From a virus: a stretch of DNA of 64,000 bases. How positions within the stretch are numbered: position 1 is the stretch's first letter; each line of letters begins with the position of its first letter. Shown here one piece after another: positions 43,141-64,000 of the stretch. Below the pieces are notes generated by a model. That model saw only the letters and a list, made by a program, of their open reading frames with translations. It ran no database searches and was not told the origin of the DNA. The position numbers were made by a program, and so were the translations under genes. The stretch covers positions 6,303 to 70,302 of the IMG/VR virus record IMGVR_UViG_3300023116_000035; one strand, 5' to 3'.

Positions 43141-43467
43141 GTGACGAAGACTTTTATGAATATATTGAAAGAACTAAAGAATCAGCACCAGACGGTGTTT
43201 TTGATGCTAGTGACTATGTGAATAGTATTGAGAAAGTTATTCACATGCTTGATAGTATTGATTATATTGATTCTGATGAGGGCAGAATGCTTGGCATGAT
43301 GGGTTTGGTTTCTATGATGACAGAAAGCGAACTTGATGCTGTTGCTGTTGGTTATGTTTTTATAACTCTGCTATCTAGTCTTGACGATTTGGTTGATGGT
43401 TCGTATCAATCTTTTGTCATGTCTATGAAGAATGATGTTGTACCTGTTTTGAAGGAGAGTCAATCAA

Positions 43468-45487: not shown

Positions 45488-45488
45488 T

Positions 45489-47141: not shown

Positions 47142-47556
47142 ACTTATCTATCTAGCAGGTTTTGCTGCTGTGGCTACTGTTGCTATTGCGGCTATACCTT
47201 TGTTGATATTTCTTCTTGCAATGTATGGCTTGGTCATGTTGATTTCGGTGCTTGTCTAATGCCTAAACATAAGAAGTATTTTGTTGTTGAGTTTCGTCTA
47301 CCTTTTGAGGTTCAGGATGTAGATGCAATTCAGATTGCTGTTAATCGGGCTAAGGTTATGTGTGAGAACATGTTTGACTTTATTCCTGAGAATTGGTATG
47401 CCAGGATTTTTGAGTATGAGACAGACAATGAGGTTTCTGGTCCTGTCAAAGAATACTTTTACAATCCGAACTCTGCTTCTTTTCGTGAAATAGAAAAGAA
47501 CATTGGATACCATAATGATTTAGTTAAGAAAGGATTAGATCCAACTAAGGATTTAG

Positions 47557-47832
47557 ATGATGAGAGTTGAGACAAGAATTGTTGATATTGATTCGTCACA
47601 TATTTCAAGACTGGAATATGTCTGGCATAGTGACGATGATTGGGCGTTGAATAATTGTGGACATGTTCGTGCAACATTTCAGAACGGTATCAGGTACATT
47701 TATGAAGAAGTTCCTTTTATTGTTTTGATGAATGTTGTGGCTAGCGAATCTGTAGGTCAAGCTTTTAACACTTTGATTAAGGGTGCTAATTATTCTTATT
47801 ACAAAGAGGGTGAATCTGTAGATGGGAAATAA
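47557..47832 (+). CDS. KTSC-domain protein
   Basis: 'SSHISRLEY...FQNG.RY.Y..VP......SESVGQAFN..IK'. Confidence 0.75.
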   Translation: MMRVETRIVDIDSSHISRLEYVWHSDDDWALNNCGHVRATFQNGIRYIYEEVPFIVLMNVVASESVGQAFNTLIKGANYSYYKEGESVDGK

Positions 47833-48253
47833 GTCAGCAACTTGCGCTGGCTGTCTGCAAAAGTTTGATTATAATTTGCTCGTCAATTATCGAAAAAAGA
47901 AATGGTGTAGTAGTAGTCAGTGCAAGGATGTAATTGACAATAAGGTTAAGCATTTCAATTACAAGAAGAAGATTAAAAAGATTGAGAGAGGAACTTATCG
48001 CAACGGTGTTTCTTTGGAAACTAGGCGTGAGATATTAGAAAGGGATAGATATACTTGTGCGCTCTGTGTCGAAGTTGATGATGGAGAGTTTAGTAAGATG
48101 CAGATTCATCATATCACGCCAGTTTCAGAAGGCGGTAATGATGACAAATCCAATCTGATTACTCTGTGTTTTAATTGTCACAAAGATTTGCATAGTTCAG
48201 GATGGGAGCAATATGTCGAAGTATTACAAAAAAGCCTTAAGAATATGGCGTAA
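47822..48253 (+). CDS. HNH endonuclease
   Basis: 'ILERDRYTCALC...IHHITPVSEGG.....NLITLCFNCH'. Confidence 0.88.
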   Translation: MGNKSATCAGCLQKFDYNLLVNYRKKKWCSSSQCKDVIDNKVKHFNYKKKIKKIERGTYRNGVSLETRREILERDRYTCALCVEVDDGEFSKMQIHHITPVSEGGNDDKSNLITLCFNCHKDLHSSGWEQYVEVLQKSLKNMA

Positions 48254-49078
48254 AAAAGAAAAGCCGGAAGATGTTCTGCCTTTCATTAAGAATTGGGTGG
48301 ACAGTCTAGAAAGAGAAATGAGAAGAAGTGGGAAAGACTCTGAGTTCATTAGCGAGTTGCTTGAAGCAGCCTATGTTTATTATGGTGAAACCTTCACAGA
48401 AGAAGAAAAGTCGGATGCGTTCATCTACCTCTTAGGTTTGCTGCATAGGAATGTGAAATGAAAGAGGTCTTGTGAAAGCAAAATCACCACCTAGATGGGT
48501 TAAATTAGAGATGCTTGACTTACAACATCAAGGGGTCAACCTTTATGATTGGGAATCAGTGAAGGAGTTCTTGGAGGGACAAAATCGCTTTACTATGCTA
48601 GAATGGGTTAAGGATCACAGGCAGCTATTTAACTATTCTGTTTTGTCCAAAAACTACAAGGCTTTGTGATGAACGAAGATACGCAAAAGGTTTTATATAC
48701 AGATGTGATGCTGGAACTTCTTTCTGCGTATCTTTTTTCTGATGAAGAGGGTGGGAAAGATCTCACTATTGAACTTATGGAATCTGTAAGGAAAGATGAA
48801 GTCCTTGCTGGTAAGGGTTTGATGGAAGGGTTGGTTTTCTCTTCTGTAATACATCTTGCTCTTATGATTACCCTTTTTGGTTTAGTAACTGGTCGTAGTA
48901 GAAAGGACGTTTTGCAGTTGTACGCTATGTCATATCAGATGACTAGAGATTCGGTTTCAGAAATGCCGCAAGTACACCCTGAGATAGTTAATAAATTAGT
49001 CGAAGAACTAGACGGCTTGCTTTAGATTGCAGACTAAGAGTCTGTAAGTTTTTATTCTCACAAAGGAGGTAACTTGCT

Positions 49079-49681
49079 ATGAGAATTATTGTATTATTTA
49101 TTATGGCGGTAGCGTCATTATCTTTTTCTATTGGAAAGGACGTAGGTGAATCACAAAGTAAAAGCGAACAAGAAATGGTGGTCAGCACTGCTGCTGTTTC
49201 TTCTGGTTATGTAGGAAATCCTTTTATAATTGAAGACTTGTCTGCTGATATGCATGATAGTGAAACTATTATTCCTGCATATCCTGATTTGCCTATCGGT
49301 GTCACTTATGAGACAACAACGACAAGTACAACGACAACTACTACCACTATTCCTTTACCTGATGGTAGTTGTTCTGAATGGTATCCTATTGCACTTGAGG
49401 CTGGTTGGTCAATTGATCAGTTACAGAAACTTGGTCGTATCATGTGGAGAGAAAGTAATTGTCTTCATGACATTGCAAACAAGACTTATTCTTATGGCTT
49501 AACTCAAATTGAGTGGTCTGCTCATAAAGGATGGCTTGAGTCTGAGTTTAATATTACTGTAAGAGAGGATTTGTATGATCCGTATACAAATTTGTTGGTA
49601 GCGAAATGGTTGTTTGACTATGCAAAAGATTCTTATGGTTGCGGCTGGCAACCTTGGTATATGAGTGGAGATTGGTGTTAA
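49079..49681 (+). CDS. Secreted lytic transglycosylase (SLT/lysozyme-like)
   Basis: Signal peptide, Thr-rich linker, 'IMWRESNC', 'SYGLTQI', 'LYDPYTNL', 'GWQPW'. Confidence 0.75.
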   Translation: MRIIVLFIMAVASLSFSIGKDVGESQSKSEQEMVVSTAAVSSGYVGNPFIIEDLSADMHDSETIIPAYPDLPIGVTYETTTTSTTTTTTTIPLPDGSCSEWYPIALEAGWSIDQLQKLGRIMWRESNCLHDIANKTYSYGLTQIEWSAHKGWLESEFNITVREDLYDPYTNLLVAKWLFDYAKDSYGCGWQPWYMSGDWC

Positions 49682-50956
49682 TGAAACTGTCAGAGTATTA
49701 TTTGAATGAAGACTATCCTGGAGTTGTGTTTGAATGTCTGGGGCATCCTCTTGAAGTAACTATCAATCATCATGGTGATGTAATTAGAGAGGAAGAAGAT
49801 ACTGAACAGGCTATTATTCGTATGGTCGGTGATAGTCAAGAATTTGTTTATTACATTGATGATTTGATTCCGTATGAAGGGAAGGTGTGTAGTTGTGGTC
49901 AGGAAGGATGTGGTCATGCTTTCTGAGATTGTGCATTGGAGTCTTGCTCTGACCGGTGTTGCTGGTATTTTTTATATTCGTTTTAGAAAGTGAGAGATAT
50001 GAATTGGGTTAAGTTGATTGCTGTTGTTGCAACAATTCTGTTGCTTGGTATTCCTGCTTATAAGATTACGAGAGGTGATTGGGAAAGATGGTAAAGAAAG
50101 ATCCGGTATGTCCTCGTTGTTTGGGTTTTATTCCAAACAATCAAACTCCAGGTGCCTATATGGGTGCTCTTAGTAGAACAGATAATAAGACAGAGATTTG
50201 TTCTGATTGTGGTACAGAAGAAGCGATGCAAGATTTTATTGATGGATTTTGCACTAAACAGAAAGATTGGATGATTAATCGTGAATATTCAAACTAAAGC
50301 AAGATGTGTCGAATGTGGTCGTGTCTTTGATCTTTTAGATGAAGATGACGCTCAGGAATGGTATTGCGGTCATGACTGTGAATCCTGAAATTAATTCTGA
50401 TGATTCCAATATTGGGATTGTTGCTGAATTTGATGACGGCGGTTTCTTGAATTACATCTTCAGTGATGAAGGTATGATTATTGATCATTATGATGAGAGT
50501 GGTGAGTTGATTATGACTGCTGCTATGACTTACTATGAGTGGTGCGATTGGATGCACGCTACGTATGGAGATTGAGATGACTGATTTGCAATATCCTATA
50601 TGGGCTATCAAGCGTAGAGATGATGAAAAGGAATCTCCTGTAAACAAGCATGGTCATCCTGGTTTTAATCATGCTTTGTGGTATTGGTGGAGAGTCAAAG
50701 TTGGTGGTAATGTTTATCAACAATTGACTTGGGAAGCGGCTATGAATCGTATTGAGTTTCACAATCAGGATGTGTACAACAAAAATTCTTATCGTCATGA
50801 TCCTTTTTGGGATATCCATTGGGAGAGGCTTTCTGAAGATACATGGCGTATTTTGAAGTCAAAGGGTGGTAATCGTATTGCTATTGCTACTCTTGTGAAG
50901 ACTCAAAAGATTAAAGATCCTGAATCAACTTATCGTTGGTATAGGAGTTAAGTTCG

Positions 50957-51184
50957 CCAGTATCTAATAGCATGGTGATTAGGGAGATCCTAATACGACC
51001 TTTGGTGTTGTTGGTTCATGAAACACTATTAGATATTGGTTAAAATCGGGGTCTATCCTTGTAACGGATAGGCTTAAAAGAAGCGAAGTAGTTATATTTT
51101 GAGAAGTGTGGAGATGCTTAGGAATTGTAGCCGAAGGTCTATGAAGCACGGAATGAATATGATGAAAGATAGCCGAACCCGATT
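50957..51184 (+). ncRNA. Two candidate structured RNAs upstream of tRNA
   Basis: Closing stems CCAGTATCTAATAG/CTATTAGATATTGG (50957-51039) and AATCGGG/CCCGATT (51044-51184); no ORF. Confidence 0.45.
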
Positions 51185-51186
51185 AT

Positions 51187-51259
51187 GCCCTTATAGCTCA
51201 ATGGATAGAGCAAATGACTTCTAATCATTAGGTTGTAGGTTCGAGTCCTACTAAGGGCG
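51187..51259 (+). tRNA. tRNA-Arg(TCT)
   Basis: Acceptor GCCCTTA/TAAGGGC, D-arm GCTC/GAGC, anticodon arm AATGA-CTTCTAA-TCATT, GGTTCGAGTCC T-loop; CCA not encoded. Confidence 0.95.
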
Positions 51260-51261
51260 CT

Positions 51262-51450
51262 GGGAAATATAAACATTATTGCTGCTGTGACGGACATTAC
51301 ATCGGCGTTTATGTTTCCCTTATTTTTGAGTAGGCTAAGCGCATTTTCCTTTCTGATGCGTTAAGGGAAACCTGTACAAGTTGATTGTTTGTTGGGCAAT
51401 CACCTGTGTATCAAAGGCTTTGTCTAAGCTAAAGGTTTTCTGCCTACTCA
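51262..51450 (+). ncRNA. Two candidate structured RNAs downstream of tRNA
   Basis: GGGAAATATAAAC/GTTTATGTTTCCC (51262-51319); TGAGTAGGC/GCCTACTCA enclosing a multibranch fold (51327-51450). Confidence 0.5.
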
Positions 51451-51493
51451 TTTTCTTTATCAATTATAAACTATATCAACTTAGGAGGTTGGT

Positions 51494-51910
51494 GTGAATA
51501 CACAAAGAATGATGATACTTGCAGATTTGCTTGACTCATTACCTGAAGAAAAATTTGAACTTGCCTATTGGGTAAATGATAGACGACAGGAGGGAGAAAC
51601 ACCTGATTATGTTGATCTTTCAGTTTATGATTGCAATACGACTGCATGTATTGCTGGATGGGCTGTTGCTTTGAAAAATGATTTAGCCGTAGATAATTTG
51701 TATTGTGGTGATGTAGAAGTCCAAGCGGGTGATTATCTTGGTTTAAATCGTCAGGAAATGCAACGTCTTTTTTTTTATGGTTTAGACACCATCTGGAGCG
51801 ACCATGCTCATGAATTAGGATGTGAATCTCCTTACGATTATACAGTAACAAATAAAATGGCAGCTAAGGCTGTCCGTAACATTGCACAAGGAAAGTGGGA
51901 ATTGGTATGA
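51494..51910 (+). CDS. Hypothetical protein, paralogue of next gene
   Basis: 'CNTTACIAGWAVALKND', 'KMAAKAVRNIA.GKW'. Confidence 0.7.
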   Translation: MNTQRMMILADLLDSLPEEKFELAYWVNDRRQEGETPDYVDLSVYDCNTTACIAGWAVALKNDLAVDNLYCGDVEVQAGDYLGLNRQEMQRLFFYGLDTIWSDHAHELGCESPYDYTVTNKMAAKAVRNIAQGKWELV

Positions 51911-52449
51911 ACAAAGAAAGAATGCTTATGCTGGCTGACGTTTTAGATAAGGTCAAGCCTATGCAGTTCAACATGGGTGATTGGTTTTCGGTCTATGTTG
52001 GTGATGAAGATTACGCAGAAGAAGATATTTATTATGAAGATTCTGATGTGTTTCGAACAAACACTGTTATGCAAATGAATGGCTATAATTGCGATGCTGC
52101 TGCTTGCATTGCGGGTTGGGCTGTTGTTTTAAAGAATGACTTTGCTGTTAACAATCCTAACACTTTGTGTGTCAATAGTTCTAGTCGCAATAGTTGGGAT
52201 GAACGTCTTGCTGCTGGTGAACTTCCAGTTATGCAAGAGGCTAAGGAATATCTTGAACTTACAGTTGATCAGTCAATTGGTTTGTTTTTGAATGAAGATG
52301 GGTATTCTGTGTGGCAATATTATGCCGGAGACTTGGGTATTAAAGATACTCATTACATTAGTCTTAATGATATTACTCCTAAGATGGCTGCAATGGCTTT
52401 GCGTAATCTTGCTAATGAGAAGTGGAAGTTTCCTGCTGATGAGCACTAA
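51907..52449 (+). CDS. Hypothetical protein, paralogue of previous gene
   Basis: 'CDAAACIAGWAVVLKND', 'KMAAMALRNLANEKW'. Confidence 0.7.
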   Translation: MNKERMLMLADVLDKVKPMQFNMGDWFSVYVGDEDYAEEDIYYEDSDVFRTNTVMQMNGYNCDAAACIAGWAVVLKNDFAVNNPNTLCVNSSSRNSWDERLAAGELPVMQEAKEYLELTVDQSIGLFLNEDGYSVWQYYAGDLGIKDTHYISLNDITPKMAAMALRNLANEKWKFPADEH

Positions 52450-53632
52450 AAAGATTGATGCAAGTCAATGGGAAAATGATATCCCTACATATCGTGAGAT
52501 TATGGATGAAAGAAAGTTACATGAAATTGATCCTAATCAATACAACCCTTGGAATTTTTTCTTAACATATAAAGGAGAGAATAAAAATGGAAAGAAGTGA
52601 TACTTATAATAAGCATTTGCTTATTGAGGACTTTTGGTTGAGAGGATATTATCTTGCTCTTATGAATTGTCGTGTTGTTGATGTAAAAGTCAATGCTCAA
52701 ATTAACGATTACGGTGAAGAATTGTGGCCTGTGATTGTCTTTGAAGATGCAAATGGTGAGCAATTTGAGTGTGAAATTAGCCGTGACCCTGAAGGTAATG
52801 GGCCTGGTTTCATGTTTGGTCTGCCTCAGTATTCTGTTCCAGAACACATTCGCAAAGGCTTTGAGTCTTTAGATAGTGAAGATCTTAAAATTATAATGAA
52901 AGGTAAGTTTGGTATCTGATGGGTCCAAGAAATAAAACATCTCATGGTATCACAAATAAAAATGAAACTGTTGGTAAGCATGTTCGGTTTATTGGTATGG
53001 GCGGTAATTGGTACAATTGCCCTCAATGTAATCGTAAGTTTGCGAGAGGGTTCTTCTGGGAAGAGGGAGATAAGAACGGATGTTCGCAAACGTGCCTTAA
53101 GAAACAAATCTAATTACATGTACGAATAAATAATCATAATGATGAATAAATATCAACGAACGGGGAATTTTGGAGTCAACATTTTACACAGTATTCGACG
53201 AAAACAATTTGGACTTTCCGGAAGTGGAGGATATCGCTCAATGTTTTGCAAACGTCTATGACGATTTTGGTAGACCTGATCCTGACAGTAATCTTGATCT
53301 TTATCGAGAGAAGTTACCAGAGATGTTGCAGAAGGTTTGTGACAGTTTGATGATCAAATATATTTACTGTAGCGTAAATATATTGTTGTTCACAGACGGT
53401 GTGGTTGAGGGTAATGACATTGATCAATTGTTGAAGAATTTGAAGGAGAAACATCGGAACGATCCAGCTGTTCCACTAGTTGAATAAGTAAACAATACCC
53501 CCAACCCTTTTATGCAGTAATCCTTAGGATTGTTTAAACATAAATTGTGTTGGGGGTACTTTAACTTACATTAAGTTTTGCTCGCCTTAGAGAGCAAATT
53601 AGACGGGTCTGAGAGGACTCTGGAGGTATAAA

Positions 53633-53848
53633 ATGACAGGTTGGAATATCGATTACTCTTTGCGTGGTACTCGTATTGAGTTGGTTCATACTAGTGATCC
53701 TTATACTAAGTTGAAGCCAGGAGATAAAGGTACTATTAAGTTTGAACATCAGGATAGTATTGCTGTGATGTGGGACTGTGGTTCTGCTCTTAGCATGAGA
53801 GAATGTGATGGAGATAGGTTCAAGGTTTTGGAGGAAGAAAATGTCTGA
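53633..53848 (+). CDS. DUF4314-like protein
   Basis: 'GTRIELV...DPY..L.PG.KGT......I.V.WD.GS.L'. Confidence 0.7.
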   Translation: MTGWNIDYSLRGTRIELVHTSDPYTKLKPGDKGTIKFEHQDSIAVMWDCGSALSMRECDGDRFKVLEEENV

Positions 53849-55530
53849 TCAGTATACGGTTTGGAAGTTGTTTATAGGTCATGAAGATGCAAAGGGTACA
53901 CCTGAGGAAACTGCTGAGATCTATAATGATCTGATCCTAGAGGCTTTAAATGAGAAACTGGCACCGGCTTTTATTGATTTGGAGTGTGAGGATTACGGCA
54001 GTCCTAATGCTGTCTTTGATGTGGAGGATTTAGATGATTGATGAAATGTATATAGTTATGCATGGAAATCCTTTTGAGGGCTATCAGTTTTTCGGTCCTT
54101 TTGGAACTATAGATGATGCACAGGATTGGGGTGAATCTAATTCTGAATTAGAGTGGTACTTGGTTCGATTAGAAGAGCCTGAGGGTGCTGATTACATTAA
54201 GGGTGGCTATTACTGGTCAGATGCGGCTAAAGAGATTGTTCAGGAAATGAGGAAGGCTAATGGGTCTTGATTTCAGCGAGTATAAGGCTGACCCTAATTT
54301 TTGTGTCTATTGTAGGCGTAGAGATATAGGTATTCATGACAATTATGTCATGGAGAAAGATGTGATTGTTGTGACTGTTTCTTGCAACATTTGTGATGGG
54401 AAATGGACTGAATGTTATACGTTGAGTTCTGTATCTTATGACGACAACTTTGTTGCAAAGACTGCTGAACAATTGGATCATGAGTATCGTATTGCGAATA
54501 TGACTGAGGAGGAAATTTATGGAAGATAATTATATTCCGGATTGGTTTGATGCGATTCTTCGTATCAGATACAACTCTGACGTTCTCATTGAGGAATTGC
54601 AAAAGGATGGAATTGAGAATGTTACTATTGATGACATTATGATCGCCATTGATCGCAAGTTGACTGATCTTTATGGTCATCGTAGTAGTCGTGAATTTGT
54701 TGTGTTTGATTCTGATGGAGAGGAGTGGTAATGGATAATCGGTTGTTGAATGCTCAGAGTACTAAGATTGCTTCTTGGTTGAAAGATAATGGTTACACTT
54801 CACTGGTTGAGTGGGGTTTGGATTCTGATTATTGTATGGATGATGATGGGATTTGGTACGATGACAATGGTAATGCAGTGGATATCTTCTCCCAAGCTTA
54901 CTATGCAATGGAGGCAGCAAATGAAAGTGTGTAAAGATTGCGGTTCTGATGCGGTTACTGAGATCGCTTATATCATCTTGAATGATAACGATTATGTTAG
55001 TAGGTCTGGCATATTTGTTTGTGATATTTGTACTATGAATCATCCTAGAAGCGAGGGGATTGGGGTGGTTGATCAAAATAAGGCACCGATAAGGGGAATA
55101 TAATGACTGAAACGGGTGAGTATCTTAATGATTTGGAGTGGTTGCATTTTTTGGTTTTAGAGATGCAGGATGATGGATATGAGTTACCTGCCGGTGATTA
55201 TGATATGGTAATCAAAATCGTAGAGGATGTTAGGGAATACTTCCTGCTTAAATGGGTGAAGGAAAATGTCTGAGAATTCTGGCGGGGTGAAAGTATTTAT
55301 ATCTATAGATAGATACATAGATATAGATACGTATCTCAGACTAGGATACGCCCCAATTCAGATTCTGAATTAAGAAAATACGTACAGAATAACGTATAAC
55401 GTTCTTGTGTTGTGTGTTCAAATAAAGGTAAATATATTAAAGAAAGAGACTAGTTTTTAGCATTTATCACATAAAATCGTAAAAAACCTTAGGATTATTT
55501 ACTTTTCCTATGTATGGCTGCGTCAATTAG

Positions 55531-55588: not shown

Positions 55589-56088
55589 GCGTTATGCCCT
55601 AATTTTCCTAAGGGTTTAAATATAAGTGTGTCTATCCCCTATCTATAGGTGGGCACATAAAGCCGCCATAAAGTTTATTATGATTTGTATCATAAAGTTC
55701 AGGCGGGGATATGGGTGTATCTGTACTACTAGAATAGATAGTAGATATGACCCCGGCATAAAGTTTGCCATAAAGTCTTGGATGAATTTCAGATTTTACA
55801 TTGGTGTAATCTGTTAACTAGATTTTTCTCTATCTTTCATTAGTTAGTTACTAAATTGTTTTGCTTGTGTTAGGTTAGTTTTGTTACAGTGCTAACCTAA
55901 CGCATTCAACTTGGAGCAGTATGTTAGGTTAGTTTCGAACCAGTGCTAACCTAACGAACCAGGCCATCTAACGCAAAAGACCCTCACCTAACTTGGACCG
56001 GTATCTGTCCTTGTTAGATGAGGGTCTAGTGCCATCGGCTGTGTTAGCCGGAGCCTCCCACCTGGTTTGTTAGGTGGGGTTTGTTAGG

Positions 56089-56373
56089 TCACGCCTTGCG
56101 TGTTACCTGAGGCACACCGGCGGGCGACCAACGGACACCGACCCGGATGTTAGCGACCTTAGCCGCTGACCGGATTTGGTTTCCGTTAGTTACCTGCTCC
56201 GCTTTGGTTGTGGCCGTTAGTTCGGCAATGCGAGCGATGTCCCCAACCTTTAGGTTAGAAAGGACCTGCTCTGCCAGTGCCTGAACTAACTCAGAGGGCT
56301 TGCGACCCCGCTGTGTTACCTCAACCTCAGCTTCGGTGATGACCTCGAATGAGAAGTTCGTCATGTTAGACAA
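56089..56373 (-). CDS. RGR-family small protein (start may be ATG 56364)
   Basis: Clearly paralogous to ORF 56958 (shared 'TQRGR.PSE', 'GNQIRS.AK.A', 'RWSPAGVPQ'). Confidence 0.85.
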   Translation of the reverse strand: MSNMTNFSFEVITEAEVEVTQRGRKPSELVQALAEQVLSNLKVGDIARIAELTATTKAEQVTNGNQIRSAAKVANIRVGVRWSPAGVPQVTRKA

Positions 56374-56888
56374 ACATCCTTTCCCCGGCTTGTTAGCCGG
56401 ACTGGAGGTGTACCGACGTTAGGTGGATACCCATTCCCAACGTGCTTCCCTAACTATTTGCGTCTGTTAGGTCCAGACGTACCATGCTGTCTCTCCCCGG
56501 TCTGTTAGATGAGGGTCAACTAACAGGCATGGCAAGGGCCGGAGAGGAAAAATCGAACTCTTTAGTTAGAAAGGAGCGTCGCCCCGGAGGGCTACGCCTA
56601 CCTTATCAAGTTAGTTCGGGTAAAGGTAGTGTGTTAGCCATTACTCAGATATTTCTTGTTAGGTAGGCCCTGGCTCTAATGTTAGATGCGTTAAAGTCCG
56701 GACAAATATGTTAGGTTAGATTCGGTCTAGTACTCCCTAACATAAAGCCCTGGCCAGCGTTAGAATATACACTAAAGTTAGATGAGTATGTTAGGTTAGA
56801 ATTGCGGGTGTACAAATTCGACGAAGAGCAGTCGGAACACCCGCCGACCTAACCTAACAGACTTACCTAACCTAACGTATCGACCTAA

Positions 56889-56919
56889 CAAAGAAAGACC
56901 CACCCCGAAGGGTGGGTCT
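56889..56919 (-). terminator. Rho-independent terminator
   Basis: AGACCCACCC-cgaa-GGGTGGGTCT with adjacent A-rich run (UUCG loop and U-rich tail on minus strand). Confidence 0.8.
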
Positions 56920-56957
56920 AACTTAGAGGGAAGGAATGTTAGAAGGGGGGAACTAAC

Positions 56958-57224
56958 TCAGTCCTTCATCTCGATTTGGGGGACACCGGCTGGCGACCAG
57001 CGGATACCAACCTTGCGACCGGCAATCTTTGCACCGGAGCGGATTTGGTTGCCCTTTGTCACTTTGTCAGCATCGTTAGTTGCACGCAACTCTTCGATGC
57101 GGATGATGGCACCCTTTGACTGTGGTTCCAGAATCATTGCGATGGCCTGTGCCTCTTCTGATGGCTGACGACCACGCTGTGTGGTTTCCACATCGTCTTC
57201 GCTGATAAGTTCGAAGTTGAACAT
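56958..57224 (-). CDS. RGR-family small protein
   Basis: AGAGGA RBS; paralogue of ORF 56089. Confidence 0.85.
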   Translation of the reverse strand: MFNFELISEDDVETTQRGRQPSEEAQAIAMILEPQSKGAIIRIEELRATNDADKVTKGNQIRSGAKIAGRKVGIRWSPAGVPQIEMKD

Positions 57225-57266
57225 TGTTTCCTCTCTGCCGAATCAGTTGTTCATCGACTAATAGAT

Positions 57267-57295
57267 ACACTAATGTGTGTTAGCAGCTGACACAA
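57267..57295 (-). promoter_or_regulatory. Sigma70-like promoter TTGTGT-17-TAGTGT with CTAAC in spacer
   Basis: Same position and spacing as in the other cassettes. Confidence 0.55.
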
Positions 57296-57566
57296 GGCTG
57301 GCGGAAAGTTTTTTGTTAGGGGCCTTTTGTTAGAACTGAATACATTTCAGTGTTAGTCCGAATAAAGTCGAACGTTGTGTTAGATATGAGCTAAAGTTAG
57401 GTCTATTTGTTAGGTTAGAACCGCTGGTGTTCAACGCCGAAGCATATCTGATCGGCACACCAGCCCAACTAACCTAACAGGGCAGAACTAACCTAACATG
57501 TCTTGACTAACAAAAAACCCGCCCTCTGTGTTAGAAGGCGGGCTTTATGTTAGGTGTTGGGCTTTG

Positions 57567-58052
57567 TTAGTATTCCCGACAGAACACGACTGCGTAGTTG
57601 TCGTCGTGAGGGTGTCTAACAACTGACCACTTTGCGTAGGAATGAATGTTACGAAGCGCACCATGCATTTTGATTAGTGGTTTTGCACTTCCACCTAACA
57701 CATCGATTGGGAAAATAACATGAGGGTATCGGGTGATTGCCTCAGCCACCGCAATCCGGCTGTTATTTCCAAGAAACTGAACTTTGTTAGGAAGCTTTTC
57801 AAATCCCCTCAATGTCCACAAACAGACGGCTGCTAACGTGCCGGTTTGGTTCCAGGGAGTAATCCAACCAGCATCTACCGCTTTGTTAGCAATGGTTCGG
57901 ATTTCTTCTGCTTGAATGAAATCCTCAAACGGACTATGAGCGACAAAAATCTTGCCGTCTAACTCAGTCACAATGTTATCTTTTATGCTAACAGTGAGTG
58001 AGCTAACTTTGATGTTCGGGTGGGCTTTTGGTTTGTTTGGGTTTGTGTTCAT
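57567..58052 (-). CDS. Hypothetical protein, probably leaderless
   Basis: ATG 7 nt after a -10 box; own terminator at 57512-57543. Confidence 0.75.
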   Translation of the reverse strand: MNTNPNKPKAHPNIKVSSLTVSIKDNIVTELDGKIFVAHSPFEDFIQAEEIRTIANKAVDAGWITPWNQTGTLAAVCLWTLRGFEKLPNKVQFLGNNSRIAVAEAITRYPHVIFPIDVLGGSAKPLIKMHGALRNIHSYAKWSVVRHPHDDNYAVVFCREY

Positions 58053-58059
58053 AGACACA

Positions 58060-58089
58060 AACTTATCAAGTTAGATCAGCCTAATGCAA
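58060..58089 (-). promoter_or_regulatory. Promoter TTGCAT-18-TAAGTT with CTAAC in spacer
   Basis: Direct reading of the minus strand. Confidence 0.6.
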
Positions 58090-58309
58090 TAGTGTTAGAC
58101 ATAAAGTTGGAATTTTTTGTTAGGTCCGAATAAGTCGATGTTATGTTAGAATATGCACTAAAATAACGGTGCTGCGTTAGGTTAGATCTGCGGGTGTGCA
58201 ACTTGGGTTTGTTGTTGCGGAACACCCGCCGTTCTAACCTAACACGCTGGTTCGACCTAACGCAAAAGACCGCCCCCTTGTGTTAGGAGGCGGCCTATGC
58301 GGGGGTATG

Positions 58310-58594
58310 TTAGAGGTCGGGGATTTCTACGTCGTAGAGGTGGCGGGCGCAGTCAGGACAGCATGACCGTGAGCAGTCCACCGAGGTAATCCAGTAGGTT
58401 AGGCCGTTCGGCATTGCCTCTGAGTTAGAGATGTCGGGACGCTCGCAGGTGCGGTTGATTGTCTCCCACACCATGTCGTAGTAGTTGAATGTTAGAACGC
58501 CGGGACGGTTGGGGACTTCGTGTCCGCATTCGAGGGTCACCGTGTCGGGTGACTGATAGGCTGGGTCAGTTAGTTTTTTGAGGTCGTAGGTCAT
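58310..58594 (-). CDS. Cys-containing hypothetical protein (MTYDLKK...)
   Basis: GAAAGGA-CCTAAC-ATG; terminator at 58264-58296. Confidence 0.7.
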   Translation of the reverse strand: MTYDLKKLTDPAYQSPDTVTLECGHEVPNRPGVLTFNYYDMVWETINRTCERPDISNSEAMPNGLTYWITSVDCSRSCCPDCARHLYDVEIPDL

Positions 58595-58605
58595 GTTAGG
58601 TCCTT

Positions 58606-58800
58606 TCAGACGGTTGGTGGGATGTAGGGGACATAGTTGCCGTTGCGCTGTTCGCAGATTGTTAGGTCGGTGACCCCGAACAGGTCGCGTGCGTTGCGAA
58701 TGTAGGTTTCGCAGGACTCTAACGAACCTACATGCTGGACATACTGTCCGTTGTGAACGTAGAGGGTTCGGGGGATGCGCTTTTTGTTTGGTGTGTTCAT
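58606..58800 (-). CDS. Hypothetical protein
   Basis: 64 aa; candidate leaderless start after TAGGGT. Confidence 0.6.
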   Translation of the reverse strand: MNTPNKKRIPRTLYVHNGQYVQHVGSLESCETYIRNARDLFGVTDLTICEQRNGNYVPYIPPTV

Positions 58801-58997
58801 ACACCAAACCCTAATCTGTTAGTTCAGCGTATTCCTACAATGTTAGCCATAAAGTTGATATTTTTTGTTAGACATAAAGGTGTATTGTGTGTTAGATTTG
58901 CACACTAAATCCGGCCTAGTTTGTTAGGTTAGTTCTGAACCAGTTCGGGCTAACGAAAAAGACCCCCCATTTCTGGGGGGTCGAATTCGACGGTAGA

Positions 58998-59459
58998 CTA
59001 GTTCGCAATGAATGCGAACGAATCTTCATCCAATCGTGTCCACGACACCTTGCACGATGCTCCGATACGGTCACCGAATCGGGGAGCGTCACCGTTGAGA
59101 GTGTGCAACCGGAATAGGTTAGAAAGCGTGGTGGTGGCATTCTTAGTGTGCTTCTCTGTCCACACTTCCACGTTGGCAATGTCCCGAACCCGAATGACAA
59201 CATGCGGGGTCTTCGGGTTAGTTGCAAGAATGTCGGCAACGTGCGAAGTGTGAATCTGAGTTGTGTCTCCCCATTCTGCCATTCTGTTAGCAACGTGGTC
59301 AGCGACACCGACACGAACCAATGCGGCAATGGCTGACCATGATGCAATGGCTTCGTTAGAAGTGGGAGCACCCTTGCGACTTAACACTAGGTCTCTATCT
59401 TCACGCTTTACCGTTACACCTTGTCGGGTGATGCTTGCGTTAATTGAGTTGATATTCAT
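58998..59459 (-). CDS. Hypothetical protein (MNINSINASIT...)
   Basis: AGAGGA RBS; terminator at 58956-58982; N-terminus similar to ORF 60596. Confidence 0.75.
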   Translation of the reverse strand: MNINSINASITRQGVTVKREDRDLVLSRKGAPTSNEAIASWSAIAALVRVGVADHVANRMAEWGDTTQIHTSHVADILATNPKTPHVVIRVRDIANVEVWTEKHTKNATTTLSNLFRLHTLNGDAPRFGDRIGASCKVSWTRLDEDSFAFIAN

Positions 59460-59496
59460 TTGGTTCCTCTCTGTTCGGTACTTCCGAACTACGTTC

Positions 59497-59526
59497 ACGT
59501 TATCAAATGGGGTTAGGTCTTCGCAA
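59497..59526 (-). promoter_or_regulatory. Promoter TTGCGA-18-TAACGT with CTAAC in spacer
   Basis: Direct reading of the minus strand. Confidence 0.5.
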
Positions 59527-59772
59527 CTTAACATAAAGCTGATTCTTTCCGTTAGTCGAATAAAGTTGGTTACCATGTTAGTTCCATAAAGGCAACCTAT
59601 TAGTTAGGTTGCATACTCAACTTCTTGTTAGGTTGCATGTTAGAATTGCGGGTGTGTAACCGCTGCGCGATCAATTATACACACCCGCCTAACCTAACAT
59701 ACGTATCTAACCTAGCTGCGGTAACTAACAAAGCCGCCCCGTTAGGAGCGGCTCTGTCAGGGAAGGATCTTG

Positions 59773-60006
59773 TTAGTCGTCAGAGATCATCTCTGTTAGT
59801 TCTGCTTCTGTTAGTTGGTATGGATCAACTGCGTTAGCAATCCGGGCAACAGCCTCTTCCATACCTAACTGAAAGGCTCGATCAAGTTTCTCGTTAGCCT
59901 CACGCTCCACTATGTTAAGTGTGTTCGTTAGGTAGATGAGCGATGCCCATGCTCCTAACGCTGCTGAGAATGCTACGGTGACGGTGATTGTTAGTACGAT
60001 GAACAT
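59773..60006 (-). CDS. Small membrane-anchored protein
   Basis: GAAGGAAA-CTAAC-ATG; N-terminal hydrophobic helix. Confidence 0.7.
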   Translation of the reverse strand: MFIVLTITVTVAFSAALGAWASLIYLTNTLNIVEREANEKLDRAFQLGMEEAVARIANAVDPYQLTEAELTEMISDD

Positions 60007-60047
60007 GTTAGTTTCCTTCCTGTCAGGGGGTTGACCTGACACCTACG

Positions 60048-60076
60048 AATGTAGTCTGTGTTAGGTGTCAAGTCAA
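60048..60076 (-). promoter_or_regulatory. Promoter TTGACT-17-TACATT with CTAAC in spacer
   Basis: Near-consensus sigma70 boxes. Confidence 0.7.
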
Positions 60077-60096
60077 CCTTTCCGACGAATGTTATG

Positions 60097-60303
60097 TTAG
60101 AGACCCCATGCGTCACGGTGACGCTTTGCGATGGCCTCGGCCTGTGCGTTAGATACGCAGTAGAGGTGGTGGATCACGCTGTCGGAGGAGTCTCCGTTAG
60201 GTGACTGGTACCAGAGTTCGATGATCGTGTCGATGACAACGACGGCTGTTAGGTCACCTTTGACGCTGACCTTTGGGACTGTTATGTTAGGGCGGGTAGT
60301 CAT
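60097..60303 (-). CDS. Hypothetical protein (MTTRPNIT...)
   Basis: GAAGGAA-CTAAC-A-ATG. Confidence 0.7.
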   Translation of the reverse strand: MTTRPNITVPKVSVKGDLTAVVVIDTIIELWYQSPNGDSSDSVIHHLYCVSNAQAEAIAKRHRDAWGL

Positions 60304-60350
60304 TGTTAGTTCCTTCCTGTTGTGGTGGGTACTTCCCACCGACAAAGAAC

Positions 60351-60379
60351 AACCTACTCTGTTAGATACGGAATGTCAA
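60351..60379 (-). promoter_or_regulatory. Promoter TTGACA-17-TAGGTT with CTAAC in spacer
   Basis: Consensus -35; CTTTATG immediately upstream. Confidence 0.75.
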
Positions 60380-60561
60380 CATAAAGTCTGAATGTTATGT
60401 TAGCCATGTCTACTCAAATTGTTATATCTGTTAGGTTAGTTGCGTGGGTGGCATAAAGGTTAGAGTTTGTGTTAGTTCTCCATAAAGTTCGCACGTTGTG
60501 TTAGATGTGCTCAAATATGAGCTAAATGTTAGGTTAGTTTCGCCCTAGTAGGGGCGCACCT

Positions 60562-60585
60562 CGACCGGCCCCGAAGGGCCGGTCG
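60562..60585 (-). terminator. GC-rich hairpin after ORF 60596
   Basis: CGACCGGCCC-cgaa-GGGCCGGTCG (UUCG loop on minus strand). Confidence 0.65.
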
Positions 60586-60595
60586 GTGGTGGCTC

Positions 60596-61066
60596 TCAGT
60601 CTTTCGTGAGAGCGACCCGCCGGAACAAGCGCACCGTTCCGTCTGCGGATGCTCGCACCCCCGCATCCTTGCTTGATGCTGGTGTGACCCACCCGATCTG
60701 CCCGACCGTTCCCATGTGGGTGGCTGGCGTGACCCGACCGTTCCGCACCGGCAGGTTGTAGGTGTTGTTCAGGTTCTCCATAGAACCGCCGACCGCCGTG
60801 AGAGCGTCCAACGGGATGTCGATGTATTCGGCGCAGTTGGTGGCGACGTAATCCCATGTGAACCGACCGCCGTTGCTAGGCGTGACCGGCTCGCAGTTCA
60901 GCAGGCTGGTGATGACAGCGTGCAAGGCGAGAGTCATATCGGGCTGGCGTGACCCCTTCTTGCGGGCGTAGGTCACGAGTGCGTCAATGTCCGCACGTTT
61001 CGGAATGGTCACACCCTTGACCGTGATGCTGGCTCGCAGTTCCTTGATGGTGTAGTTCGTGTTCAT
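60596..61066 (-). CDS. Hypothetical protein (MNTNYTIKELRASIT...)
   Basis: GAAGGAAA RBS; promoter TTGCAT-17-TACTGT at 61109-61137. Confidence 0.75.
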   Translation of the reverse strand: MNTNYTIKELRASITVKGVTIPKRADIDALVTYARKKGSRQPDMTLALHAVITSLLNCEPVTPSNGGRFTWDYVATNCAEYIDIPLDALTAVGGSMENLNNTYNLPVRNGRVTPATHMGTVGQIGWVTPASSKDAGVRASADGTVRLFRRVALTKD

Positions 61067-61297: not shown

Positions 61298-61906
61298 TTA
61301 AAGGATGGGGTGTTTGTCTTCGGGTGGGTTTTTGCGAATTTTGGGGATTTGGAAGTGTCGGGGGATAGGCGATACTGCTTTTTCTGTTGGATAGACAATA
61401 GGGGTGTGTTTTGGGGTGTGTCTCATTTTGCGGGGTTTCTTGTCTTTCAGCAGGATCGTGTCGATTCTGTTGCTTCTTAGGTAGTCTACGACTCTTTTTT
61501 GGTCTTCATAGGTGTCGTCGTGTTTGCCGATGACTCTGGTTATTCCTGAGTTGGCGATGAGTTTGGCGCAACTGTAACATGGTGAGCCGTTGATGATTAT
61601 GGTTGCTTCTTGTCGTGCTATGGGGTCTGCCCACATGATGGCGTTTGCTTCTGCGTGTGTTGCAATGCAGTTGTCGTATATTGAGCCTGATGGCGAGTTT
61701 TGTTGTGCTCTGGGACATGCTCCTTGTGTGCAATGGCGTGCTCCCGGCGGTGACCCGTTGTATCCTTGACTGATTAGTCTTTTGTTGCTGCCAATTATGA
61801 CGGCGAAATATTGCCGTTTTGAGCATGTGGAGAATATTGGTGCGAGTGCGTCACATGCTTGAAGCCATTTTTGTTCGTGTGGTTTTATGATCGTGTTTTC
61901 GTACAT
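61298..61906 (-). CDS. dCMP deaminase
   Basis: 'STC.KR', 'GYNGSP', 'HAEANA', 'SPCYSC'. Confidence 0.92.
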   Translation of the reverse strand: MYENTIIKPHEQKWLQACDALAPIFSTCSKRQYFAVIIGSNKRLISQGYNGSPPGARHCTQGACPRAQQNSPSGSIYDNCIATHAEANAIMWADPIARQEATIIINGSPCYSCAKLIANSGITRVIGKHDDTYEDQKRVVDYLRSNRIDTILLKDKKPRKMRHTPKHTPIVYPTEKAVSPIPRHFQIPKIRKNPPEDKHPIL

Positions 61907-62017
61907 CGTTCCTCTTTATGTCGTTTATCGCATTGTACGACATTTTAGACGGCTCTGAGGCCATTTCTGAACGGAAGTTAGTTTTTTCGGACACTGCCAA
62001 GTCGGGGTGCTGAATAG

Positions 62018-62051
62018 AAAAAAGACCCCGTTTTGGATAAGGGGTCTCTTT
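62018..62051 (-). terminator. Rho-independent terminator
   Basis: A6 then GACCCC...GGGGTC. Confidence 0.7.
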
Positions 62052-62071
62052 CTTACATTATGTGGTTTGAT

Positions 62072-62197
62072 TTAGTTCATTTTGAAGTATGCGAGCGCTT
62101 TCAACATTTCTCGCTCCAAGTCATCTGTTAAGCGTGTGTCTGCTACATAATTTTGACGTTGACGACGGTTACGTAAACGATTCATTACTTTTGTCAT
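62072..62197 (-). CDS. Small basic protein (41 aa, not in ORF track)
   Basis: AAGGAGGT RBS; MTKVMNRLRNRRQRQNYVADTRL... Confidence 0.55.
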   Translation of the reverse strand: MTKVMNRLRNRRQRQNYVADTRLTDDLEREMLKALAYFKMN

Positions 62198-62250
62198 TTG
62201 TGTGGTTTACCTCCTTGATACTTCCAGTATAAGTACTGGCTGTTTGGGTA

Positions 62251-63297
62251 TCAAGATTGTAGTCCGGTGAAAGCCGTCACATCTTTAGCCCACTCTATCC
62301 TTGAATTGATAATGTCCCAGTATTCGTCAGTAAGTTCAAAGCCTGTAACGTTACAGTTCTCTAGTATAGCAGCAACCGCTGTAGTACCGGAGCCTAAAAA
62401 GGGATCAAACACATGGCCTTGTGGTGGGGTAACAAGACGAATCAGATACCTCATCAGGTCGATAGGTTTCACAGTAGGGTGATTATTTGATACACCTGAA
62501 GCGTTTTTCTCCGACTTTGATGCTTTTGCACTATAAATAAACGGAGGGATGTCGTTAACCCCGTCCCAAATAGCGTCGTAGAAAAAATCTGATGCACCAG
62601 GGTACTGCTTTTCTACAGTTTTTACTCCACAATCGTCTTCGCATTGTGTTTCTGTGCAGTTAACGGAGTGGCTGAACAGCACATTTGATGGAAATCGCCC
62701 AGTTACATACTTATCTTCTGGTTTTATGCCTTCAACACGATCTCTATCGGCAAAACCACCAAAGTTATTGTACACTTGGATCTTAATTTGCTCATCACCG
62801 ACCCTTGTAGCCTCAATATTGAAAGCTCCAACGCCCCATTTTTCTACATTCTTGTAAATTGGGCCTTTAAATGGCTTTCTTGCAAGCACAATAGGCTCAT
62901 GTGCTGGCTTTAGACAGGTTCCCCACCCATTCCATTGCTGTTGTAAGTCACTGCCGTCCTCAAAGCGTGTTCCTAGATTGACAGATTTGGGGAAACCGCT
63001 ACCATATATCCAATGAAGGCTGTCTTTTACTTCGAAGCCTGCTTCTTCAATCGCAACTGCGATGCGATGGTACGTTCTTGATGCACTAAAAGATAGTAAG
63101 TGTCCGCCCGGCTTAAGCGTGCGGAGGCATTCTGACCAGAACTCTGTGTTGTAAGCAATCCCACTTCTATCCCATCCTTTGTTGATAAAGTTGATTTCAT
63201 ACGGAGGGTCCGTAACAATTGAATCAAACGTATTATCAGGGATATTTTTTACTAGGTCAAGAGAATCGCCATATTGAATGTTAAAATTTTTAGACAT
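62251..63297 (-). CDS. N6-adenine/N4-cytosine DNA methyltransferase (beta class)
   Basis: 'TDPPY' before 'HPTVKP' and 'DPFLGSGTT'. Confidence 0.92.
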   Translation of the reverse strand: MSKNFNIQYGDSLDLVKNIPDNTFDSIVTDPPYEINFINKGWDRSGIAYNTEFWSECLRTLKPGGHLLSFSASRTYHRIAVAIEEAGFEVKDSLHWIYGSGFPKSVNLGTRFEDGSDLQQQWNGWGTCLKPAHEPIVLARKPFKGPIYKNVEKWGVGAFNIEATRVGDEQIKIQVYNNFGGFADRDRVEGIKPEDKYVTGRFPSNVLFSHSVNCTETQCEDDCGVKTVEKQYPGASDFFYDAIWDGVNDIPPFIYSAKASKSEKNASGVSNNHPTVKPIDLMRYLIRLVTPPQGHVFDPFLGSGTTAVAAILENCNVTGFELTDEYWDIINSRIEWAKDVTAFTGLQS

Positions 63298-64000
63298 TTC
63301 TACCTGTTTCTTTTGCTGTCTCTATAATCAACTCTTCGATCCCCAAACCTTCAATGTTTTGGATATATGAAGGTATGTTCCATGTGCCAACATCTCTGTG
63401 GAAGAACACATCTCTTTCTTTATACGACTTTAATGCAACATTGTATATGATTTCCGCAAAATCTGTTGCATTTAAAAAGTTACTTCGAAGATTTTCCATT
63501 GCTAGAGCTTGCGCATTTGTCCAGAATGGCGTGTTGTACTTGCTTCCTGCAAGATAATGAAGACAAATCATTGATTCTATTTCTTCAATATCTACATGGT
63601 AGTTAAGGTTGCAGTCTTCTGCGTACAGTATATCTTCGTGATCCCACAAAGTTAAAGCGTGTCTGTTGATTTCGTGTATTAATGTTGTTGATGTTGCTTC
63701 CAATGGCTCTAGAAAGAATGAAGCGTTACCGTTATAGACGGTGTTACCAATAAAGTTTTCTTTCCTAAGATAGTTGTTAAAGTTTATTTTGTTTTCATTA
63801 ACTATTTCTTCAAGTTTGCTACTGAATTCCAGCTCCGACAAGGCTTCGTTGAAGTCTTTTTCAACTTCTTCTGCTGCTGAAATGTTTCTGTTGTATAGAT
63901 AACCAAAAGAGATTCGGTTAGTTAATGGGATACCAAAGATCCATCCGTGTGGTCTGGCGATGCATAACGTATAATCTATTAGAGCATGTGTCGCTGAGAA
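63290..64000 (-). CDS. Tryptophan-halogenase-like flavoprotein (5' end beyond window)
   Basis: Frame open to the window edge; 'ARPHGWIFGIPL', 'GNASFFLEPLEATS', 'HY.AGSKY.TPFW'. Confidence 0.75.
   Translation of the reverse strand, partial: FSATHALIDYTLCIARPHGWIFGIPLTNRISFGYLYNRNISAAEEVEKDFNEALSELEFSSKLEEIVNENKINFNNYLRKENFIGNTVYNGNASFFLEPLEATSTTLIHEINRHALTLWDHEDILYAEDCNLNYHVDIEEIESMICLHYLAGSKYNTPFWTNAQALAMENLRSNFLNATDFAEIIYNVALKSYKERDVFFHRDVGTWNIPSYIQNIEGLGIEELIIETAKETGRNV

Follow-up and report, generated by a model that had tools for sequence, protein, structure and literature searches.

The virus window analyzed here, 64,000 nucleotides (nt) covering bases 6303 to 70302 of a single virus record of 70,302 bases (IMGVR_UViG_3300023116_000035), contains an island of small genes at 55843-60540 that is saturated with one 5-bp word, CTAAC, or its complement, GTTAG. 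The island appears to be an array of single-gene cassettes, each bracketed by one copy of a control module. The reading we tentatively favor, at somewhat less than an even chance, is that the copies are dense operator sites of low information for a candidate cooperative DNA-binding regulator, set in a cassette array resembling the PeSL cassettes of T4-type phages. The anatomy of the island, the signatures of selection, the synteny with related viruses and the change of word between lineages can be read directly from the DNA.

A sequence-only reading had put the number of copies at about 135 to 140, or one per 35 bp where about 9 in all were expected, and had described the edges as sharp. Our counts agree closely.

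55843-60540, minus strand: word-saturated domain, 138 copies, 99 of them CTAAC on the gene strand

This is one copy per 34 nt, compared with about 9.2 copies expected at uniform composition and about 9.6 at the island's own base composition. The whole window has 189 copies (dinucleotide shuffles, 109.7 ± 9.8; largest, 137); by position, 48 lie before the island and 3 after it, and the copies outside it fall into 5 at 35236-35302, 13 at 36792-37096 and 33 in the remaining window. Counted in 1-kb bins across the record, the word reaches 20 to 34 copies within the island and 0 to 3 nearly everywhere else. The right border is indeed sharp: the final island copy is at 60533-60537, the next is at 61144, and the gene at 60596-61066 is without any copy. 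GC content is 0.47 to 0.50 in the island versus 0.37 to 0.39 in the left flank, and at third codon positions it is 0.45 to 0.78 in the island genes versus 0.27 to 0.30 in the neighboring operon. On the gene strand, which is the minus strand, CTAAC occurs 99 times and GTTAG 39 times, and at least 16 of the 39 GTTAG are the 5′ arms of inverted repeats. The flanks of the word are weakly constrained (A-n-CTAAC-A-n-A), and the conserved unit is 5 bp.

Elsewhere in the record, the word is avoided. With the island and the two small arrays masked, 64.8 kb contain 42 copies, against 140 expected from a zero-order model and 64 from a Markov model of order 3, and CTAAC/GTTAG outside the arrays ranks fifth lowest of 512 pentamers. 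The most avoided pentamer outside the island is a different one, GCCAA/TTGGC (18 copies against 87.9 expected at Markov order 3), and CCAGG/CCTGG is also scarce there (39 against 76); the scarcity of these two words may reflect restriction-site avoidance.

The island is real DNA. At least 12 DNA runs labeled as salt-marsh metagenome contain 83 to 99% of the sampled words of 55600-60600; two of these are possibly the window's own source, but run X3 is not marked as such. In X3, one contig spans 55649-58713 with zero differences, and a second, which differs by 4 substitutions and some small indels, spans 58786-61061. Since these independent contigs carry the island, a chimeric or misassembled insert, which the earlier reading had allowed for, is excluded. 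One X3 contig departs from the window sequence at 58815 with 255 unmatched letters and probably represents a variant in the population whose cassette junction differs. We did not rely on the difference in X3 depth between island and flank, nor on the patchy cover by RNA-library contigs, because contig depth cannot rank regions.

The island has eight genes, called from ORFs (open reading frames), all on the minus strand and encoding 64 to 161 amino acids (aa). In the following list, L033 is a related contig that is compared with the window below, and RGR is a protein family also described below.

60097-60303, minus strand: cassette gene, 68 aa, no family; homologs in L033 and in the TGTAAT-type relatives
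59773-60006, minus strand: cassette gene, 77 aa, hydrophobic N terminus; 8 word copies
58998-59459, minus strand: cassette gene, 153 aa, no family; homolog not seen in L033
58606-58800, minus strand: cassette gene, 64 aa; best-conserved island protein, 84% identity in L033
58310-58594, minus strand: cassette gene, 94 aa, Cys-rich; absent from L033 along with module 58053-58309
57567-58052, minus strand: cassette gene, 161 aa, without an upstream ribosome site
56958-57224, minus strand: RGR-family gene 1, 88 aa
56089-56364, minus strand: RGR-family gene 2, 91 aa; long leader at 56365-56600 with word positions kept in L033

The eight proteins gave no Pfam match above the cut-off and no match in PHROGs or NCBIfam. 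Adjoining the domain is one further gene:

60596-61066, minus strand: GC-rich gene, third-position GC 0.78, zero copies in the window

The L033 ortholog of this gene sits within the L033 island and has 3 copies.

The word has also spread into the genes. About 102 of the 138 island copies are noncoding, and the eight coding sequences (2415 nt) hold the other 36, compared with 11.9 ± 2.6 (largest, 22) in 1000 within-gene permutations of synonymous codons. The coding excess therefore survives a codon-preserving shuffle, the check that the sequence-only reading had proposed, and three control genes right of the island have zero copies. In the ORF at 59773-60006, CTA-ACx is used for all four Leu-Thr pairs, GCT-AAC for both Ala-Asn pairs, and TTA-GGx preceded by G for both Leu-Gly pairs; the 234-nt coding sequence carries 8 copies, against 2.4 ± 1.0 after permutation, and one more spans the stop, so the codon-pair details and the nine copies reported before are correct. 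Four of the eight genes end within C-TAA-C (copies at 57566, 58309, 59772 and 60096); the stops of ORFs 57567, 58310 and 60097 had already been recognized. CTAAC also stands directly 5′ of the ATG in four of the eight. The gene at 60097-60303 has both features, with CTAAC between its ribosome site and ATG and its stop within CTAAC.

The island spacers are paralogous copies of one module of about 250 to 340 nt, six of which we aligned. Read on the gene strand, the module has a terminator, GTTAGGTTAG once or twice, a long inverted repeat whose core is GGCGGGYGT...ACRCCCGC, and the block CTAACCTAAC-14 nt-TTAGTG, and then more CTAAC, often spaced by 23 to 27 nt, a CTTTATG box or two, a leader and a ribosome site. 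Mean column identity among the six modules is 45%, and the 28 invariant columns include two whole CTAAC words and TT.AG. The structural elements are as follows:

59639-59698, minus strand: long inverted repeat with a GGCGGGTGTGT...ACACACCCGC core
58176-58243, minus strand: long inverted repeat with outer arms GTTAGGTTAG / CTAACCTAAC, -35.7 kcal/mol as RNA
57409-57478, minus strand: long inverted repeat, same design as 58176-58243, -35.5 kcal/mol
56790-56858, minus strand: long inverted repeat, same design as 58176-58243, -33.1 kcal/mol
58267-58296, 57514-57546, 56896-56919, 58961-58982 and 59730-59756, minus strand: intrinsic-terminator-like hairpins
55869-55901 and 55923-55955, minus strand: two short inverted repeats beyond the last gene (GTTAGGTTAG, 13 nt, CTAACCTAAC), kept in L033
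55656-55775, minus strand: five CATAAAG boxes (CTTTATG on the gene strand) in the AT-rich gap beyond the last gene

The inner stems of the long inverted repeats vary among the copies yet remain complementary. A scan of the gene strand returned four of the terminator-like hairpins, of 9 to 14 pairs, and the fifth (59730-59756) was found by reading; those at 58267-58296, 57514-57546 and 59730-59756 carry CTAAC in their loops, the same three terminators that had been pointed out before. GTTAG follows directly after the T run of every island terminator. The double word starts 24 nt before TTAGTG at three of four sites in the window island, four of five in L033, and two of four in L017, a relative with a different word. 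A search of Rfam over 34000-64000 at E ≤ 1 gave a tRNA and chance-level rows only, with nothing above the gathering score in the island.

Searching with the island RGR proteins, we found 8 viral contigs and 15 further metagenome contigs. In all of these relatives the GC-rich island of small genes and terminators recurs, together with the TTTAGTG block, the CTTTATG/T boxes and a long inverted repeat that has a GGGCGGGYGTAA...TTACRCCCGC base. A syntenic domain in related phages, enriched for the same or another word, had been suggested as a check, and it exists, with three words in four states. The saturating word is TGTAATATTACA plus its half-site in 17 contigs, CTAACGTTAG in three (L017, L031 and L032), and CTAACCTAAC in one relative (L033) and the window; it is absent in two (L027 and L028), and the CTTTATG box is present in the modules and in all related lineages, including this one. 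The pairing of the words changes as well. CTAAC is arranged head to tail in the window (17 pairs) and L033 (21 pairs), with no palindrome; it is head to head as CTAACGTTAG in L017, L031 and L032 (32, 15 and 8), with no direct pair; and TGTAAnnTTACA forms 21, 15, 16 and 6 head-to-head pairs in four TGTAAT-type loci.

L033, which has 75 to 89% identity to the window in the flanking genes, allows the sites themselves to be compared. Its island, about 6.3 kb with 168 copies, ends as sharply as that of the window and shows the same drop in GC; its coding DNA has 47 copies, where permutation leaves 17.5 ± 2.9. Of the 64 window copies in four orthologous spacers, 38 lie in the same alignment column, and spacer identity outside the word columns is only 0.53 to 0.59. 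Seven orthologous coding sequences have 28 copies in the window and 30 in L033, with 10 shared columns; the gene at 57567-58052, for example, has 8 copies and its ortholog 9, 2 of them at the same place. From these alignments, spacers conserve individual sites and genes conserve density. Together with the codon permutations and the invariant module columns, the conservation of intergenic positions and the turnover of coding copies at constant density support the earlier proposal that a short site is under selection for very high density. Only in the CTAACC lineage have the genes been invaded strongly; the invasion is moderate in L017 (13 copies against 5.3 ± 2.0). The idea of a cassette system is supported too: the genes are separated by copies of the same module, and L033 differs in the order and the set of its genes, with no counterpart of 58998 or of 58310 and its module.

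L033 also has a variant word, CTTAAC/GTTAAG, in tandem (5014-5109 and elsewhere), and AACTTAAC occurs there 18 times. Three unrelated viral contigs that the double-word pattern retrieved have (CCTAA)n-like inverted repeats with 17 to 21 CTAAC/GTTAG within 500 nt of noncoding DNA (L001 at 3280-3490, L003 at 10160-10400 and L004 at 2780-3030); these were left out of the comparison.

Two smaller arrays of the word lie at a distance from the island.

36792-37096, plus strand: satellite array of 13 copies (11 CTAAC on the plus strand), ahead of the operon starting at 37172
35236-35302, plus strand: mini array of 5 copies, ahead of the third RGR-family gene
35465-35821, plus strand: third RGR-family gene, divergent, 118 aa

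The operon (37172-55273) comprises 48 ORFs in 18 kb and is directed towards the island. In the long records of relatives, the exact palindrome is likewise confined to the island and one place about 20 kb off: in G001 (87% complete) 32 of 33 palindromes are in the island and one is at 29039, in G002 8 of 9 are in the island and one is at 79413, and in G003 8 of 10 are in the island and 2 are at 97.4 kb. This distant place corresponds to the window arrays 35236-35302 and 36792-37096. In three lineages, the head of an operon 19 to 20 kb from the island is marked with the word.

The phage is a partial, uncultured siphophage of the roughly 105-kb class. Its genes encode a tape-measure protein of more than 1950 aa, tail fibers, a DnaE-like polymerase, DnaB, a primase, a UvsX-like recombinase, a large terminase, and several DNA methyltransferases and glycosyltransferases. 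The polymerase and the terminase have their closest cultured relatives in Streptomyces siphophages (37 to 41% identity), and among 50,697 cultured-phage records we found no DNA relatives, near or distant. Related records G002 to G004 are rated complete at 105.7 to 108.7 kb, and another two, of about 91 kb, are 87% complete; judged by the complete ones, the present contig is about two-thirds of a genome. The 18-kb operon of small genes includes a WhiB-family gene at 43468-43764 on the plus strand (PF02467; E = 9.6e-22). WhiB-like proteins are a trait of actinobacteria and their phages, and the host is therefore probably an actinobacterium.

We then considered which protein might read the word. 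The RGR family is the only one common to all 13 islands compared, and it is our first candidate binder. There are two to four copies per genome, each copy in the window is preceded by an array of the word, and the three window genes align with those of relatives. The proteins (88 to 131 aa) share an invariant G-R near the N terminus (RGR in 13 of 14 aligned) and a C-terminal W-S-P-x-G-V-P-Q block. A structural model (pLDDT 86.5) has a floppy N-terminal arm with the Arg-Gly-Arg and a small alpha/beta body. The family profile matched 146 clusters at E ≤ 0.001, 73 of them at E ≤ 1e-10, among 1.84 billion representatives, and in the ESM Atlas only unnamed clusters (scores of 0.86 to 0.88). No RGR protein was found by tblastn in the 50,697 cultured-phage records, or with a single peptide pattern in one genome each of 185,579 prokaryote species. 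When the RGR alignment is sorted by word type, the lineages differ in ways that are not separable from phylogeny. The protein of 58606-58800, a lineage-restricted and highly conserved candidate binder, belongs to only 2 database clusters and has a model pLDDT of 79.5, with no fold match at E ≤ 0.001.

Taken together, these data suggest that CTAAC is the lineage-specific recognition word of a putative sequence-specific DNA-binding regulator, which would act on the array and on the head of the neighboring 18-kb operon. A 5-bp word is nearly without specificity of its own, so recognition would have to be cooperative, through multivalent occupancy of dense arrays; this would account for the selection for density, the spread into coding DNA through the choice of codons and residues, and the avoidance of the word elsewhere. 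The likely effect, by analogy with stoperators, would be to switch the whole array in a coordinated way, with promoters occluded and oriented sites acting as roadblocks, and the repeated modules would permit gain, loss and reordering of cassettes by recombination. Protein binding, DNA rather than RNA as the target, and the direction of the switch are what we infer from these patterns, as is the early or accessory nature of the cassette genes. The sequence-only reading had also mentioned protein coating that silences or protects the cluster; nothing in our analysis supports this.

A more specific version, which we consider unlikely, is a "density-coded address": a very short word would mark the cassette island and the adjacent operon promoter and be read by cooperative coating with RGR through its flexible Arg-Gly-Arg arm, and, like immunity specificities, it would be free to change from lineage to lineage (TGTAAT, CTAACG, CTAACC), as would its pairing, head to head or head to tail. 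As the word would have shrunk to 5 bp in this lineage, the genes would have been recoded to carry it; and as it equals the repeat unit of the iron repressor IdeR, the array might in addition engage the repressor of the host.

Several observations weigh against a DNA operator array read by RGR. The 99:39 strand bias and the word at four of eight starts and four of eight stops fit an RNA-level signal too. In a consensus scan, sigma-70-type promoter matches are not enriched (5 against 7.7 ± 2.5); one good match is at 60076-60048, and another was seen by eye near 60350-60378. Coding enrichment in TGTAAT-type relatives is weak and indistinguishable from the flank control. RGR has no recognizable DNA-binding domain: Pfam, PHROGs and NCBIfam are empty, a PDB sequence profile gave nothing below E = 0.1, and the best structural matches are weak (Foldseek E = 0.014 to the RNase E small subdomain and VIA Z = 6.3 to SpoVS, both within the range that the tool calls common). 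Two of the window RGR proteins appear acidic, as read from their sequences. The family also occurs in L027 and L028, with hairpins and CTTTATG/T boxes but without the saturating word, and so it may read a conserved element instead, namely CTTTATG, TTTAGTG or the base of the repeat. The other regulator that we considered is a MerR-type helix-turn-helix protein (16697-17161, plus strand, 154 aa; 47 to 53% identity in five related records). Its helix-turn-helix is nearly invariant across lineages with different words and cannot explain the change of word, so we rejected it as the word-specific reader; from its conservation, it is a candidate for reading one of the conserved boxes.

The strand bias and the positions at starts and stops would also follow if CUAAC acted in RNA, read by an RNA-binding protein or through RNA-RNA pairing and thereby governing how the cassette mRNAs are translated, processed or stabilized in a RegA-like or SAS-like manner, with the long hairpins as processing or stabilizing structures. 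Those inverted repeats stay complementary despite differing inner sequences, as structured RNAs do, and the weak fold matches of RGR include the nucleic-acid-binding folds SpoVS, the small RNase E subdomain and R3H. However, hairpin loops show no excess of CTAAC (9 of 99 copies, where random positions average 12.5; in L033, 9 of 110 against 10.7), the words of relatives are perfect palindromes typical of DNA operators, the GTTAG beyond each terminator T run lies past the expected RNA 3′ end, and the fixed distance to TTAGTG resembles promoter geometry. RNA-library contigs cover pieces of the island, but only patchily; strand is not readable from them, and they are no proof of transcription. 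We regard an RNA-level word as quite unlikely, and DNA as by a good measure the more probable target, because of the palindromes, the TTAGTG distance, the copy past each terminator and the negative loop test, and also because of the operon-head position and the avoidance across the genome.

The excess might need no dedicated binder at all, being a by-product of duplicating a word-rich module six or seven times, with recombination or gene conversion; the spacers are paralogous copies of one module, most copies are noncoding, and cassettes are shuffled in L033. This is improbable. Coding copies are threefold over codon-preserving permutations in both the window and L033 and stand largely at different places in orthologs (10 shared of 28 and 30), word columns are invariant in modules only 45% identical, 38 of 64 are retained in spacers only 53 to 59% identical elsewhere, and the word is avoided outside the island. 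Conservation of sites in spacers and of density in genes makes module duplication an insufficient explanation. A host factor, the iron repressor IdeR/DtxR, might instead be recruited or soaked up by the array. IdeR recognizes CCTAA repeats, four of them in a palindromic arrangement, and requires a T at position 3 and a C in at least one of positions 1 and 2, according to the available part of one preprint (10.64898/2026.10.05.756664); the nCTAA within every CTAAC fits that rule, the double CTAACCTAAC equals one half of an iron box (17 double words in the window, 21 in L033), and the host is probably an actinobacterium. Yet neither the window nor L033 has a site with ≤3 mismatches to the 19-nt box, no inverted GTTAG/CTAAC pair occurs at box spacing, and sister lineages have TGTAATATTACA or no word on the same architecture, for which a phage-side determinant is simpler; we hold this reading to be decidedly improbable.

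Two further explanations appear to us very improbable. One is that the repeats, with GTTAGGT/ACCTAAC cores, are site-specific recombination sites of integron attC or shufflon type that move cassettes. The attC core pattern is GTTRRRY; GTTAGGT fits this pattern, cassette order and content differ between the window and L033, and the X3 contig departs from the window at 58815. But in the gene direction an attC site has its RYYYAAC core first and GTTRRRY last, and here the orientation is opposite, with GTTAGGTTAG first and CTAACCTAAC last. No integrase or recombinase family was found among the 59 window ORFs scanned, with no scan applying all libraries to all ORFs and the contig lacking about a third of the genome. 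A recombination site needs neither 138 copies nor copies inside genes, and homologous recombination between repeats of 250 to 340 nt is enough. The other is a locus for packaging, DNA entry, segregation or the origin of replication. In seven long contigs (the window, L006 to L009, L014 and L017), no more than about 20 kb separate the island from a contig end, and CTTTATG boxes are clustered in the AT-rich gap 55656-55775. We dropped the nearness to contig ends as a sign of a genome terminus: one of the seven records has end repeats, so that its ends are arbitrary, repeats break assemblies, and a terminal signal is unreadable from contigs. The block consists of successive genes that form transcription units with terminators, the large terminase is 20 kb off, and the word also marks the operon head, which makes the packaging, entry or segregation locus raised by the sequence-only reading unlikely.

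The favored reading, a cassette array with dense operator sites, recalls several published systems. PeSL cassettes of T4-type myoviruses, as their abstract describes them, consist of a promoter and a stem-loop terminator around small genes and are reshuffled by recombination (Arbiol et al. 2010, PMC2839356). Our island has a similar repeated intergenic cassette with a stem-loop terminator (six paralogous spacers), flanking small genes of unknown function whose order varies between relatives, here the window and L033. It differs in belonging to a siphophage-like actinophage with a DnaE-type polymerase instead of the hyperplastic regions of T4-type myoviruses, in its larger module with an extra long inverted repeat, and in the 5-bp word that saturates spacers, invades genes and changes between lineages, which is absent from the PeSL abstract. 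Each PeSL cassette has a strong sigma-70-like early promoter; here, the consensus scan gave 5 matches against 7.7 ± 2.5, and the modules have the conserved CTAACCTAAC-14 nt-TTAGTG block.

A temperate phage genome has some tens of stoperators, to which its immunity repressor binds. In Cluster A mycobacteriophages they are many asymmetric sites, mostly in one orientation relative to transcription, with specificity that varies (PMC9283540, PMC6550527); they are 13 bp long and spread genome-wide (PMC3203893 for the 13 bp), as far as the available parts of these sources go. The island shares with them many asymmetric copies in actinophage transcription units, with specificity that differs between relatives; the orientation of the copies, 99 sense and 39 antisense with at least 16 of the latter being inverted-repeat arms, may be a further parallel. 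Unlike stoperators, the unit here is 5 bp, and its 138 copies in 4.7 kb are confined to the island plus the operon head. No phage immunity repressor or integrase family was found among the window ORFs scanned, in what is a partial contig. The SAS/ESAS elements of Cluster K mycobacteriophages are, in the available part of their description, 13-bp words with the ribosome site, one per gene (Pope et al. 2011, PMC3203893). Like them, our word is asymmetric and stands directly 5′ of the starts of nonstructural genes, often with an upstream imperfect inverted repeat; unlike them, it is 5 bp, occurs about 15 times per spacer and lies inside genes as well. The iron box of IdeR/DtxR shares the CCTAA unit and the actinobacterial setting, the double word being a half-box, but its palindromic four-repeat arrangement is absent here.

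As the defining features of each are lacking, the island is not a member of the PeSL, stoperator or SAS/ESAS systems. We did not find its architecture described for actinophages, and the word strings CTAACGTTAG and TGTAATATTACA led to unrelated papers only; the COBRA paper, in its available part, treats whiB-encoding actinophages and not these repeats (PMC10914622). The earlier description of the system as undescribed holds in part: a PeSL-like architecture and oriented multicopy operators were already known, and four things are new, namely that the word is so short and so dense, that it extends into coding DNA, that lineages exchange it for other words while the scaffold stays constant, and that a protein family is associated with it.

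Other features of the window were noted in passing. Its only tRNA is a tRNA-Arg (TCT) at 51187-51260 on the plus strand. Right of the island, the minus-strand row 61298-64000 comprises a dCMP-deaminase-like gene (61298-61906), a DNA methyltransferase gene (62251-63297) and a tryptophan-halogenase-like ORF (PF04820; E = 7.7e-23) that runs off the contig, and it may be a nucleotide or DNA modification module. The ORF at 44597-45487 on the plus strand has a weak match to the antirestriction family ArdA below the cut-off (E = 0.0024; 18.9 bits versus 27).

If a protein does read the word, the specificity of a regulator would come from the density of its sites instead of their length, selection on those sites would be so strong as to recode genes, and related viruses could swap the "address". 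If the array is only a PeSL-like recombination scaffold, it would be the first found in print outside T4-type phages. The comparison defines a conserved regulatory architecture, composed of a terminator, an inverted repeat, a fixed promoter-like block and CTTTATG boxes, and a new protein family of 146 clusters in widespread phages of about 105 kb that probably infect aquatic actinobacteria and have no cultured member. Since the cassettes are likely to be host-takeover or anti-defense genes, their modules may serve as natural, portable expression units.

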